From the NCBI RefSeq assembly GCF_048403405.1, contig NZ_CP183129.1: DNA of 64,000 bases, one strand, 5' to 3'. The notes under the pieces were generated by a model. It saw nothing but the letters and a program-made list of their open reading frames with translations. It was not told where the DNA came from and did not search any database. Both the position numbers and the translations under genes were made by a program. Positions within the stretch are counted from its first letter, which is position 1, and every line of letters begins with the position of its first letter. The stretch is from Escherichia coli. Lineage in GTDB: Bacteria; Pseudomonadota; Gammaproteobacteria; Enterobacterales; Enterobacteriaceae. Positions 792 to 23,243 of this stretch are shown piece by piece.

Positions 792-2117
792 ATGAGTGAG
801 ATATCCCGGCAAGAGTTTCAGCGTCGCCGTCAGGCCCTGGTGGAGCAAATGCAACCCGGCAGCGCCGCGCTGATTTTTGCTGCACCAGAAGTAACACGTA
901 GCGCCGACAGCGAATACCCCTATCGTCAGAACAGTGACTTCTGGTACTTCACCGGCTTTAACGAACCGGAAGCGGTGCTGGTGCTGATTAAAAGCGATGA
1001 CACTCATAACCACAGCGTTTTGTTTAACCGCGTTCGCGACCTGACGGCAGAGATCTGGTTTGGTCGTCGCTTAGGTCAGGATGCCGCGCCAGAGAAACTG
1101 GGTGTTGATCGCGCTCTGGCATTCAGCGAAATTAATCAGCAACTTTATCAACTACTTAATGGTCTGGATGTGGTTTACCACGCCCAGGGCGAATATGCAT
1201 ATGCTGATGAAATCGTGAACAGTGCGCTGGAAAAACTGCGTAAAGGCTCGCGGCAAAATCTTACCGCACCGGCAACGATGATCGACTGGCGTCCCATTGT
1301 TCATGAAATGCGCCTGTTCAAATCGCCGGAAGAGATTGCCGTACTTCGCCGCGCGGGGGAAATTACCGCCCTGGCGCATACCCGGGCGATGGAAAAATGC
1401 CGTCCGGGAATGTTCGAGTACCATCTGGAAGGCGAAATTCACCACGAATTTAACCGCCACGGTGCGCGTTATCCGTCCTACAACACCATCGTCGGCAGCG
1501 GTGAAAACGGCTGCATTCTGCACTACACCGAAAACGAGAGTGAACTGCGTGACGGTGACCTGGTGTTGATTGACGCGGGTTGTGAATACAAAGGTTACGC
1601 GGGCGATATTACCCGCACCTTCCCGGTCAACGGCAAATTCACTCAGGCCCAGCGTGAAATCTACGACATTGTGCTGGAGTCTCTTGAAACCAGCCTGCGC
1701 CTGTATCGTCCGGGAACTTCCATGCAGGAAGTCACTGGTGAAGTGGTGCGTATCATGGTTAGCGGCCTGGTAAAACTCGGCATCCTGAAAGGTGATGTTG
1801 ATGAACTGATCGCTCAGAACGCCCATCGTCCTTTCTTTATGCATGGCCTTAGCCACTGGTTAGGACTGGATGTCCATGACGTTGGCGTTTATGGTCAGGA
1901 TCGCTCGCGCATTCTGGAACCGGGGATGGTACTGACCGTAGAGCCTGGTCTGTATATCGCGCCGGATGCGGATGTGCCAGAACAATATCGCGGTATCGGC
2001 ATTCGTATTGAAGACGACATTGTGATTACCGAAACCGGCAACGAAAACCTCACCGCCAGCGTGGTGAAAAAGCCGGAAGAAATCGAAGCGTTGATGGCTG
2101 CTGCGAGAAAGCAATGA
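792..2117 (+). CDS. pepP: Xaa-Pro aminopeptidase (aminopeptidase P II)
   Basis: Track ORF 579..2117 is over-extended; the ATG at codon 72 (MSEISRQEFQRRRQAL...) follows an AGGAGA Shine-Dalgarno and gives 441 aa, a pita-bread metallopeptidase. Confidence 0.93.
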   Translation: MSEISRQEFQRRRQALVEQMQPGSAALIFAAPEVTRSADSEYPYRQNSDFWYFTGFNEPEAVLVLIKSDDTHNHSVLFNRVRDLTAEIWFGRRLGQDAAPEKLGVDRALAFSEINQQLYQLLNGLDVVYHAQGEYAYADEIVNSALEKLRKGSRQNLTAPATMIDWRPIVHEMRLFKSPEEIAVLRRAGEITALAHTRAMEKCRPGMFEYHLEGEIHHEFNRHGARYPSYNTIVGSGENGCILHYTENESELRDGDLVLIDAGCEYKGYAGDITRTFPVNGKFTQAQREIYDIVLESLETSLRLYRPGTSMQEVTGEVVRIMVSGLVKLGILKGDVDELIAQNAHRPFFMHGLSHWLGLDVHDVGVYGQDRSRILEPGMVLTVEPGLYIAPDADVPEQYRGIGIRIEDDIVITETGNENLTASVVKKPEEIEALMAAARKQ

Positions 2118-3292
2118 GCGTAATCATCGTCGGTGGCGGCATGGCGGGCGCGACGCTGGCGCTGGCTATTTCCCGGTTAAGTCACGGGGCGCTGCCGGTA
2201 CATTTGATTGAAGCGACTGCGCCAGAGTCACATGCTCATCCGGGCTTTGATGGACGAGCTATTGCGCTGGCGGCGGGTACCTGTCAGCAACTGGCGCGCA
2301 TCGGCGTTTGGCAATCTCTGGCGGATTGCGCAACCGCCATCACCAGCGTGCATGTCAGCGATCGTGGTCACGCTGGATTTGTCACCCTCGCCGCAGAAGA
2401 TTACCAACTGGCGGCGCTGGGACAGGTTGTCGAATTGCACAATGTCGGGCAACGGCTGTTTGCATTGCTGCGTAAAGCACCTGGCGTAACGCTGCATTGC
2501 CCTGATCGCGTGGCTAACGTTGCCCGTACTCAGAGTCACGTTGAAGTGACGCTGGAGTGTGGCGAAACGCTGACGGGCCGCGTGCTGGTAGCCGCTGATG
2601 GCACCCATTCAGCGTTAGCCACTGTGTGCGGCGTTGACTGGCAGCAGGAGCCTTACGAACAACTGGCTGTGATTGCCAACGTTGCGACTTCCGTTGCGCA
2701 CGAAGGGCGCGCTTTTGAACGCTTTACGCAACATGGCCCGCTGGCGATGTTGCCGATGTCTGACGGACGCTGTTCGCTGGTCTGGTGTCATCTACTGGAA
2801 CGGCGCGAAGAGGTACTGTCGTGGAGCGACGAGAAGTTTTGCCGTGAACTCCAGTCGGCCTTTGGTTGGCGACTTGGGAAAATTACCCACGCTGGTAAAC
2901 GCAGTGCTTATCCGCTGGCGTTAACCCGCGCCGCCAGACCTATTACCCATCGTACCGTGCTGGTGGGCAATGCGGCGCAAACTCTGCACCCGATTGCCGG
3001 GCAAGGGTTCAACCTCGGTATGCGGGATGTCATGAGCCTTGCGGAAACCTTGACTCAGGCGCAGGAGCGCGGAGAAGACATAGGTGATTACGGCGTATTG
3101 TGCCGTTATCAGCAGCGTCGACAGAGCGATCGCGAAGCAACCATCGGTGTCACGGACAGCCTTGTACATCTTTTTGCCAACCGTTGGACGCCGCTGGTTG
3201 TCGGGCGCAACATCGGGCTGATGACGATGGAATTATTTACCCCGGCACGCGATGTGCTGGCGCAGCGCACCCTCGGTTGGGTGGCGCGTTGA
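2114..3292 (+). CDS. ubiH: 2-octaprenyl-6-methoxyphenol hydroxylase (FAD-dependent monooxygenase)
   Basis: 392 aa with an N-terminal GGGMAGATLA FAD-binding fold; the ATG overlaps the pepP stop (ATGA), indicating translational coupling. Confidence 0.93.
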   Translation: MSVIIVGGGMAGATLALAISRLSHGALPVHLIEATAPESHAHPGFDGRAIALAAGTCQQLARIGVWQSLADCATAITSVHVSDRGHAGFVTLAAEDYQLAALGQVVELHNVGQRLFALLRKAPGVTLHCPDRVANVARTQSHVEVTLECGETLTGRVLVAADGTHSALATVCGVDWQQEPYEQLAVIANVATSVAHEGRAFERFTQHGPLAMLPMSDGRCSLVWCHLLERREEVLSWSDEKFCRELQSAFGWRLGKITHAGKRSAYPLALTRAARPITHRTVLVGNAAQTLHPIAGQGFNLGMRDVMSLAETLTQAQERGEDIGDYGVLCRYQQRRQSDREATIGVTDSLVHLFANRWTPLVVGRNIGLMTMELFTPARDVLAQRTLGWVAR

Positions 3293-21545: not shown

Positions 21546-21667
21546 AATTTCTCACATGTAATTCTAATCACTCATCATTATAGATAATTGAAGAGTGAAA
21601 TGATTAACCAAGTGAGCGTTTATCGACAACCGCCCGTTTTGAGCGGATGTCGACAGGTAAAAACCAT

Positions 21668-21793
21668 TTAAAAAAGCAGCATCATATATTTGAAGCGACT
21701 TTCAATGGCCATTGCAACACAGTCAGAAATGACAGGAATAGAGAGAGTAAAAAGCAACAACAGACTGAATATAGCGCGCATTAAAAGATTCAT
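21668..21793 (-). CDS. Candidate 41-aa small hydrophobic protein directly downstream of uacT (below the six-frame track length cutoff)
   Basis: Minus-strand ATG one nucleotide after the uacT stop; translation is MNLLMRAIFSLLLLFTLSIPVISDCVAMAIESRFKYMMLLF with one predicted TM helix. It may correspond to a small protein annotated in K-12 as yqfG, but I am not certain of that. Confidence 0.45.
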   Translation of the reverse strand: MNLLMRAIFSLLLLFTLSIPVISDCVAMAIESRFKYMMLLF

Positions 21794-21794
21794 A

Positions 21795-23243
21795 TTATTC
21801 TCCATGCTCATTTTTCTTCAGCTTGCGCATCAGAAGCCACATACGTACTGTCCTGACTTTTAAATCTTTATCAGAGACGGATTCCTTCACCAGATCAGCA
21901 TGATGCTGATAGCCATTAAAGAAGACGTTCAGCACAACGGCGCTAAGGGTTGCGAGCATAATGCCGCTATGCAGCAACGGTTGCAGTACGGCCGGTAACT
22001 TAGAAAAGAAATCGTGAGAGAGCGTCGGAGTCATGCCAACGCCGAGACTGATCGCCACAATATAGAGGTTGTAACGATTGGTGGTGTAGTTACAGCGCGA
22101 CAGAATTCGAATCCCTGTCGCCAGTACCATGCCGAACATCACCAGCCCAGCACCGCCCAGCACAAATTGCGGAATGGAGGCGACCAGCACCGCCATTTTT
22201 GGCACCATGCCAAACAGGATTAATATAATTCCCGAAGAAATACACACCCAGCGGCTATGAACGCGCGTCACGCTAACCAGGCCAACGTTTTGAGAAAATG
22301 ACGTGTGGGGAAAGCTGTTAAACGTTCCGCCTATCATTGTCCCTACGCCATCGACACGCAGCCCGCGAATAATATCGTGTGAAGAGAGTTTACGACCGAC
22401 TATTTCACCCAGTGCCAGGAACATCCCCATCGACTCGATAAACACGATGATTAACACGGCAGTCATGGTCAGAATGGAAACGGGATCGAAAATCGGCATA
22501 CCAAATGACATCGGCGTGACAATCGCAAACCATGAAGCATCATGTAGCCCGGATAAATTGACTTCATTCATCATCCACGAAAGTAAAAAGCCAAATACAA
22601 TCCCCAGTAATACGGCGACGTTGGACATAAATCCTTTCGCATAGCGAGTAATGAGCAAGATAAAAATTAAGACGGCAAAGGAGATACCTAAATAAACGGG
22701 ATTACCATATTGCGGATTCCCTTTACCTCCGGCGGCCCAGTCAATACCCACCTGAATGATGCTAAGCCCGATAGAAGTAATCACAACACCGGTAACCAGT
22801 GGCGGGAATAAAGGCATCAAGCGACCGATAAGTGGCGCTAATAATGTGGTGATAAAACCCGCGGCGATAGTGGCACCGAATATCCCCAGCAGGCCGATAT
22901 CCGGGTTCATGCCAATGGCTATCATTGGTGTTACAGCGGCGAAGGTCACCGACATAATCACCGGCAGGCGGATCCCCATAAAGCGGCCGATACCGATACA
23001 TTGCAATAATGTGACGATCCCGCAGCAAAAGAGATCCGAGCTAATGAGCATCGCAATAGCTTCTTTTGAGAGGCCCAGTCGGTCACCAATCATAAGAGGA
23101 ACAGCGACTGCACCTGCGTACATGACAAGGACGTGTTGCAGACCGAGTATGATCAGCTTTCCTGGTGATAATATGCGGTCAACCTCATCAGTTGGGCGGT
23201 CTTGCCCTGAAGATGAGGGAAGTTGGGAATCTATGGCGCTCAT
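21795..23243 (-). CDS. uacT: Uric acid:H+ symporter, NCS2 (nucleobase-cation symporter-2) family
   Basis: Track ORF 21795..23372 trimmed to the ATG at codon 44 (MSAIDSQLPSSSGQ...), preceded by an AAGGAG SD; 482 aa polytopic membrane protein. Confidence 0.9.
   Translation of the reverse strand: MSAIDSQLPSSSGQDRPTDEVDRILSPGKLIILGLQHVLVMYAGAVAVPLMIGDRLGLSKEAIAMLISSDLFCCGIVTLLQCIGIGRFMGIRLPVIMSVTFAAVTPMIAIGMNPDIGLLGIFGATIAAGFITTLLAPLIGRLMPLFPPLVTGVVITSIGLSIIQVGIDWAAGGKGNPQYGNPVYLGISFAVLIFILLITRYAKGFMSNVAVLLGIVFGFLLSWMMNEVNLSGLHDASWFAIVTPMSFGMPIFDPVSILTMTAVLIIVFIESMGMFLALGEIVGRKLSSHDIIRGLRVDGVGTMIGGTFNSFPHTSFSQNVGLVSVTRVHSRWVCISSGIILILFGMVPKMAVLVASIPQFVLGGAGLVMFGMVLATGIRILSRCNYTTNRYNLYIVAISLGVGMTPTLSHDFFSKLPAVLQPLLHSGIMLATLSAVVLNVFFNGYQHHADLVKESVSDKDLKVRTVRMWLLMRKLKKNEHGE

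Follow-up and report, generated by a model that had tools for sequence, protein, structure and literature searches.

The uacT-yqfG locus

We analysed a 64,000-nucleotide (nt) stretch of Escherichia coli DNA (contig NZ_CP183129.1 of RefSeq assembly GCF_048403405.1; hereafter the window), focusing on a 41-codon open reading frame (ORF) directly behind uacT, the gene of a urate/proton symporter. The gene order in the window is lysS / idi / yqfG / uacT / ygfT, and the small ORF occupies the position of annotated yqfG, between uacT (ygfU) and idi and on the same strand as both. On the minus strand, the C-terminal end of uacT reads NEHGE, followed by TAA; one nucleotide further, an ATG (21793..21791) opens MNLLMRAIFSLLLLFTLSIPVISDCVAMAIESRFKYMMLLF, which ends at the stop codon TAA (21670..21668). 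The initial annotation had described a uacT stop, one nucleotide and the ATG of a 41-codon ORF, and reading of the minus strand bore this out. Its coordinates (21668-21797) needed a small correction, as the ORF proper covers 21668..21793 and the end at 21797 takes in the uacT stop codon. The features of the locus are as follows.

21795..23243, minus strand: uacT (ygfU), urate/proton symporter of 482 amino acids (aa), the upstream gene of the pair (ORF list, RefSeq)
21813..21857, minus strand: codons of the cytoplasmic C-terminal tail of UacT, VRTVRMWLLMRKLKK (residues 463-477), a motif that co-occurs with the small ORF
21800..21803, minus strand: GGAG Shine-Dalgarno (SD) sequence of yqfG, within the final uacT codons (16S duplex energy, orthologue comparison)
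21794..21797, minus strand: uacT stop codon TAA (21797..21795) and the lone spacer T (21794) before the yqfG ATG
21668..21793, minus strand: yqfG coding sequence (CDS), 41 codons plus TAA (sequence and translation, RefSeq, coding signature, ratio of non-synonymous to synonymous substitution rates (dN/dS), family alignments, literature on RseP substrates)
21621..21655, minus strand: stable hairpin without a U-tract, 13 nt past the yqfG stop (fold z-score, comparison across relatives)

The RefSeq CDS 'protein YqfG' (WP_001050745.1) spans exactly the window ORF with 100% DNA identity. In E. coli, this ORF has already been annotated as yqfG, the gene of a small membrane protein, and the name that the initial annotation had offered tentatively was correct; the gene itself is thus known and catalogued. 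YqfG of K-12 (b4684) lies at the same position between uacT and idi and has the same length, and the sole difference is at residue 3, with F3 in K-12 (MNFLMRAIF...) and L3 in the window (MNLLMRAIF...; 40/41 residues identical); the window thus stems from an E. coli strain other than K-12. An exact-sequence look-up found the 41-aa sequence under the same name on at least 1000 contigs, and megablast found the region in 5369 of 5426 complete E. coli genomes. We sampled 30 of the 5365 ranked matching genomes at regular intervals, and 29 of them carried an annotated yqfG. Disrupted alleles exist and are rare, with a 37-aa start-loss form on 110 contigs and a 57-aa stop-loss form on 11. In addition, three E. 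coli alleles (P0018/P0024/P0039) are in-frame length variants inside the transmembrane (TM) segment, namely a gain of 2 aa (IF duplication, 23 contigs), a gain of 4 aa (SLLF duplication) and a loss of 3 aa (PVI). The PVI-loss allele lacks P20, which is elsewhere invariant. Slippage in the repetitive leucine codons (CTG/TTG/CTT) is the probable origin of such variants.

The ORF listing of the window shows the yqfG frame as 47 codons, owing to two upstream in-frame ATGs, and we therefore compared the candidate start codons. The GGAG lies 6 nt from the annotated ATG and pairs with the 3' tail of 16S rRNA at -6.4 kcal/mol. The other in-frame ATGs, at 21811, 21805 and 21781, scored -1.0, -1.9 and +0.2 kcal/mol, respectively, and are essentially without an SD sequence. 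Because the pairing is far better at the annotated ATG, 21793 is the likely start of yqfG.

Taken by itself, the arrangement in the window does not stand out statistically. When the downstream region was shuffled with its dinucleotides preserved, 392 of 20000 shuffles (~2%) gave an ATG within 10 nt of the stop that opened at least 41 codons, and the arrangement alone is therefore not beyond chance. Across ten 41-codon orthologues, the first, second and third codon positions varied in 23, 11 and 36 of 41 columns, respectively, and pairwise dN/dS was 0.03-0.46 in nearly all pairs. Between E. coli and E. albertii, 7 synonymous changes stood against 1 non-synonymous change (binomial P ~1.6e-4). 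Furthermore, the ORF and its tight junction to the permease gene were kept in E. albertii, cryptic Escherichia clades, several Citrobacter species and Klebsiella-/Enterobacter-type members; the lack of conservation, or the disrupted start or stop in relatives, that the initial annotation had named as grounds for rejecting the ORF was not seen. Conservation across relatives, together with the experimental work published on the protein, indicates that yqfG is a real coding gene, with purifying selection acting on its peptide. Sequence searches of Pfam, NCBIfam and PDB with YqfG gave no match, and an Rfam search gave a chance match only (20 bits against a gathering score of 100).

One cryptic Escherichia locus (L088, GCA_004745145.1, about 1115..3000) matches uacT from residue 107 onward only and has no uacT gene called, and yqfG is intact downstream of it. 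The partial uacT is either a pseudogene or an assembly error.

The YqfG family and its attachment to the permease gene

A protein search with the single YqfG sequence gave matches limited to Escherichia and Shigella. The picture of an Escherichia-only gene was an artefact of limited search sensitivity, and it was corrected by synteny-guided and profile searches. In regions 3' of uacT orthologues, taken from one genome per species, we saw that Citrobacter sp. R56 clearly has a homologue (54% identity) and that Kluyvera has a more divergent one (31-39% identity). Profile searches added C. enshiensis, C. amalonaticus and others, and an exhaustive hidden Markov model (HMM) search of 1.84 billion representatives returned 30 proteins at E<=1e-3, with lengths of 38-45 residues in most cases. 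By their source names, these belong to Klebsiella michiganensis, K. oxytoca, K. pasteurii, Enterobacter cloacae, Enterobacter sp. and Citrobacter sp., and the Klebsiella, Enterobacter and Citrobacter members from this search were all labelled 'hypothetical'. Two Klebsiella variants (K. michiganensis, K. oxytoca, K. pasteurii) each occurred on at least 1000 contigs.

In the family alignment, P20, R33 and F34 are invariant and R6, L14 and S32 nearly so. A small-xxx-small motif is present (C25xxxA29 in E. coli, GxxxG in most others), the C-terminus is rich in aromatic residues, and the C-terminal half is the better conserved. AlphaFold2, run with the family alignment, predicted one continuous helix over residues 3-40, with a mean predicted local distance difference test score (pLDDT) of 83.6. 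The initial view of the ORF as a single-TM small protein agrees with this helix, with the hydrophobic sequence and with a published TMHMM prediction.

We then compared the genomic context of the family. The small ORF lies directly behind a Xan_ur_permease gene in all 12 lineages with readable context, this Pfam family being the one that matches the permeases of the related loci. The downstream neighbour varies: idi follows in Escherichia and most Citrobacter, AraC-family genes in L086, an FdhF-like molybdopterin oxidoreductase gene in L093-L097, and xdhC, on the opposite strand, in L098. An association of yqfG with idi was ruled out, since L086, L093-L099 and others have no idi downstream and idi has its own promoter (see below). 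The constant adjacency in these genomes suggests that UacT and YqfG work together.

Some of these neighbourhoods hold further genes. In the Klebsiella-/Enterobacter-type loci (L093-L097), the oxidoreductase gene (Molybdop_Fe4S4 and Molybdopterin domains) begins 11-27 nt past the small ORF, and in Serratia oryzae (L004) the same oxidoreductase directly follows uacT, with no small ORF. The RefSeq product name of ygfT mentions formate-dependent urate degradation, to which the oxidoreductase next to the small ORF may be of relevance. In Citrobacter amalonaticus (L084 108..2999), uacT is immediately preceded by another Xan_ur_permease gene (455 aa), which itself comes after an amidohydrolase gene; in this tandem of nucleobase permeases, the small ORF lies behind the uacT-type gene only.

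The junction between the two genes is also conserved. A stop codon, one nucleotide and ATG were found in 10 of 10 Escherichia and Citrobacter lineages, the stop being TAA, TGA or TAG. The Klebsiella-/Enterobacter-type loci have a TAATG overlap, and three other distant loci have a gap of 2-3 nt between permease stop and ATG. Spacing of -1 to +3 nt, with the SD in the final permease codons, thus holds in 11 of 12 lineages, and a purine-rich SD stands at the corresponding place in the orthologues, Kluyvera apart. In Kluyvera, a 66-nt spacer containing a hairpin separates the genes, and the small ORF has its own AGGA SD. A scan of the minus strand at the uacT-yqfG junction of the window found no promoter-like or terminator-like site. 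With TAA-T-ATG, the window has the near-adjacent stop and start expected of a coupled gene pair. The locus resembles known translationally coupled pairs (ATGA, TAATG, TAAnATG) in its spacing of -1 to +3 nt and in the SD inside the upstream gene, both kept across genera. It differs from them in that the yqfG start has no masking structure and one lineage, Kluyvera, is uncoupled.

In two Kluyvera loci (L005 4453..4515, and L091), the small-ORF frame is open back to a TTG 6 nt past the permease stop. A TTG start, giving a coupled long form of 58 aa, would extend the N-terminus by 20 residues. All differences between the two loci in the extension are non-synonymous, and for this reason the internal ATG with the AGGA SD is, judging from these two sequences, more likely the start than the TTG.

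Within the permease, presence of the small ORF goes together with a C-terminal tail. At only 43% identity to E. coli UacT, the Klebsiella-type permease still has a tail, VRTVRMWLLLRKVQK, with the same motif as the E. coli tail. We found the motif R[TM][VM]RM[WF]LL[LM]RK in 22 permease loci, 19 of which have the small ORF, and the ORF stood behind none of 73 tail-less homologues. Morganella, Hafnia, Edwardsiella, Aeromonas and Burkholderiales are among the sources of tail-less homologues, many of which, at 51-78% identity, resemble UacT more closely than the Klebsiella-type permease does. In the tail codons, 10-12 of 45 nt differ and only 3 of 15 residues do. Since synonymous sites have diverged while the residues were mostly kept, the comparison indicates that the UacT tail VRTVRMWLL[LM]RK is under purifying selection and not merely recently shared DNA. 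In the AlphaFold model of UacT, the tail region is a low-confidence helix (residues 458-479).

YqfG as a candidate partner of UacT

Published work deals with YqfG as a protease substrate. It was described as a small membrane protein of unknown function with a predicted N-in/C-out topology (TMHMM), and it was chosen for its likeness to signal peptides, which are known substrates of the S2P intramembrane protease RseP (PMC4597795). An HA-MBP-YqfG fusion was cut by RseP, presumably inside the TM segment, and served as a model substrate (PMC4597795); that paper cites Hemm et al. 2008 as the first report of YqfG. A later study showed cleavage of 3xFLAG-tagged YqfG by chromosomally encoded RseP, and cleavage in vitro with purified RseP, and placed YqfG in 'class I' (PMC10470546). 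In both studies, N-terminally tagged YqfG accumulated at full length in cells lacking RseP (PMC4597795, PMC10470546). A ribosome profiling (Ribo-seq) study of K-12 counted yqfG as one of the 'previously known sORFs' and saw no significant change in it under acid stress. The comparative pattern described here, that is, the family, the attachment to the permease, the junction geometry and the co-occurrence with the tail, goes beyond the published YqfG literature that we found, and is modest in scope.

Small membrane proteins that act on larger ones offer a comparison. KdpF (KdpFABC), CydX (cytochrome bd), AcrZ (AcrB) and MgtR and MgtS (MgtC and MgtA) have, like YqfG, fewer than 50 residues and one TM helix. 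KdpF, CydX and MgtR share an operon with the partner, in a conserved gene order, and for all five proteins physical association with the partner and an effect on it have been demonstrated. YqfG is of the same kind in size and synteny, with 41 aa, one predicted helix and adjacency to one type of permease gene in 12 lineages. It has no sequence similarity to the KdpF/CydX/AcrZ/MgtR kind (no Pfam or NCBIfam match). To our knowledge, no NCS2/NAT nucleobase transporter has a small-protein subunit. Other small membrane proteins degraded by RseP include remnant signal peptides, YkgR, HokB, Blr and YshB (PMC10470546). Unlike the remnant signal peptides and toxins among these, YqfG makes up a separate conserved family that is linked to a single permease gene, and is not a by-product of secretion.

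As our best reading we propose, with our judgement evenly poised, that yqfG may encode a co-translated, single-pass, dedicated partner of the UacT-type urate permease. In this proposal, uacT and yqfG would be transcribed on one mRNA, and either the ribosome terminating on uacT would reinitiate at yqfG or a new 30S subunit would load via the SD. The product, a 41-residue single-pass inner-membrane protein (predicted N-in/C-out), would serve as an accessory or regulatory partner of the permease. It would act via its conserved C-terminal half (P20, the small-xxx-small motif, S32-R33-F34 and the aromatic C-terminus), possibly with participation of the basic C-terminal tail of the permease, and its turnover would be set by RseP cleavage. 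YqfG would modulate stability, assembly or gating of the permease and would not be required for transport. A more elaborate version, which we find rather unlikely, is that YqfG and the UacT tail VRTVRMWLL[LM]RK form a two-part module peculiar to enterobacterial urate permeases, in which co-translated YqfG binds the permease, perhaps via this tail, and controls its stability or gating, with RseP cleavage as the off-switch. If true, YqfG would be the first known case of a small-protein subunit in an NCS2/NAT nucleobase transporter, and its cleavage by RseP would gain a physiological meaning.

Several observations weigh against a dedicated partnership or against the coupling that is part of it. 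Three tail-bearing permeases, in C. freundii, Serratia oryzae and Pluralibacter, have no small ORF. The association of tail and ORF is confounded by phylogeny, and the carriers with a named source are all Enterobacteriaceae. In an AlphaFold2 prediction of a UacT-(GGGGS)8-YqfG fusion, UacT folded well (predicted template modelling score 0.72), and consecutive 10-residue blocks of YqfG had pLDDT values of 60/79/70/52 compared with 90/92/85/71 for YqfG alone; this run used a naturally paired alignment of 59 rows, which is shallow for YqfG, gave no interface read-out and lends docking no support. In E. coli Nissle, a host that keeps its chromosomal yqfG, plasmid-borne ygfU on its own increases urate uptake (PMC9067508), and because of this YqfG is not an obligatory stoichiometric subunit of UacT. 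In the Ribo-seq study, the blank adjusted P for yqfG ribosome footprints suggests low expression. As for translational coupling, which the initial annotation had proposed, the conserved stop-start geometry fits it, but the evidence at the start site is less favourable. The 111-nt junction RNA folded no better than shuffles (z = -0.37), and masking of the start site by mRNA structure is thus not supported; the SD is strong enough that independent initiation of yqfG is possible; and Kluyvera, with its 66-nt spacer and own SD, is an uncoupled lineage.

The most serious alternative is that YqfG is a genuine small membrane protein unrelated to UacT, a passenger in the transcription unit that was inherited with the 3' end of the permease gene. 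UacT that works when expressed alone and a fusion model with no sign of docking are what this would predict, as are three close permease orthologues that are without the ORF and show no visible effect of this in the permease sequence; RseP, moreover, cleaves many unrelated small membrane proteins (PMC10470546). Yet the adjacency survives divergence of the permease to 43% identity and full turnover of the downstream genes, in 12 of 12 lineages, whereas a hitchhiker would be expected elsewhere at times or to be lost more often, and the peptide is under purifying selection. We regard a passenger as rather unlikely, though plausible. It is much less probable that YqfG is a secreted pre-peptide, with residues 1-23 a Sec signal peptide cut by signal peptidase I, RseP clearing the remnant, and a hydrophobic 18-residue C-terminal peptide ending in Phe as the released product. 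The Escherichia and Citrobacter members do have an n-region with the nearly invariant R6, a hydrophobic 13-residue h-region (A7-I19), P at -4, V or A at -3 and S at -1; conservation is strongest in the C-terminal half, whose last residue is almost always aromatic, and resemblance to signal peptides was the reason for selecting YqfG in PMC4597795. The V/A-x-S pattern is not kept in the Klebsiella-/Enterobacter-/Kluyvera-type members, which read PAVQQA, PIVQQG or PVIAQG (V-Q-Q or I-A-Q in place of it) and have no consistent small residues at -3 and -1. Furthermore, the AlphaFold helix runs uninterrupted through the supposed cleavage site, and the N-terminally tagged constructs stay full-length without RseP. 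A cleavable signal peptide was downgraded on the absence of a conserved -3/-1 site in the distant members.

Translation of yqfG, not its peptide, might also be what matters, in that ribosomes would shield the 3' end of uacT mRNA from Rho or RNases or would relay coupling to the next gene. The wedging of the Klebsiella-/Enterobacter-type ORF between permease and oxidoreductase, with 11-27 nt to the next start, would suit such a role, as would the conserved hairpin behind the ORF in Escherichia and Citrobacter. We consider it very improbable, as selection on the peptide is clear, with P20, R33 and F34 invariant across dS > 1, unlike in a pure spacer ORF; in addition, idi in E. coli has its own promoter and the next gene in L098 is on the opposite strand. 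Finally, the ~2% of shuffles that give a similar ORF, the lack of a Pfam, NCBIfam or PDB match and the seemingly low Ribo-seq signal in K-12 could be read as signs that the frame is open by chance and owes its annotation to tradition alone. The coding signature speaks against this, as do conservation across genera, the preserved junction and the behaviour of tagged YqfG as an integral membrane protein and protease substrate (PMC4597795, PMC10470546). A chance ORF, to which we give practically no weight, was ruled out by the conservation analysis.

For a decade, YqfG has served as a model substrate of RseP. An Enterobacteriaceae-wide family that is always joined to a UacT-type permease gene, and only to permeases with one particular C-terminal tail, yields a concrete, testable partner hypothesis. 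UacT is also being engineered into probiotic strains to lower uric acid, and such designs could be affected by co-expression or removal of YqfG, should it stabilise or regulate the permease.

The 3' hairpin, the idi promoter and yqfH

The hairpin past the yqfG stop (21621..21655, minus strand) had a fold z of -4.05, and 0 of 200 shuffles were as stable. A hairpin occurs at the matching position in Escherichia and Citrobacter, with stems that are different but compensating, and Kluyvera has a canonical terminator with a T-run. The terminator scan did not flag the hairpin of the window, for want of a T-run. It is probably the 3' end or a stabiliser of the uacT-yqfG transcript. In the spacer between yqfG and idi, idi has its own sigma-70 promoter, TTGTCG-18-AATCAT, mapped by systematic evolution of ligands by exponential enrichment (SELEX; PMC3946193); its hexamers lie at 21629..21624 and 21605..21600 in the window, and the 3' arm of the hairpin contains the -35 hexamer TTGTCG. 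With a promoter of its own for idi and a stable hairpin after yqfG, uacT-yqfG looks like one expression unit.

The same region carries an annotated antisense gene, yqfH, which encodes 23 aa (MINQVSVYRQPPVLSGCRQVKTI) at 21600..21671 on the plus strand. It overlaps the yqfG stop by 4 nt and crosses the 3' hairpin, and the idi -10 hexamer, AATCAT, supplies its ATG in reverse complement. YqfH has been detected by sequential peptide affinity (SPA) tagging (PMC6001520) and by targeted mass spectrometry (PMC12529367). The yqfH frame is unconserved, with a frameshift in another E. coli strain (L080), a premature stop in cryptic Escherichia (L088/L089) and loss of the stop in E. albertii. From these comparisons, the conserved element appears to be the RNA structure, not the YqfH peptide.

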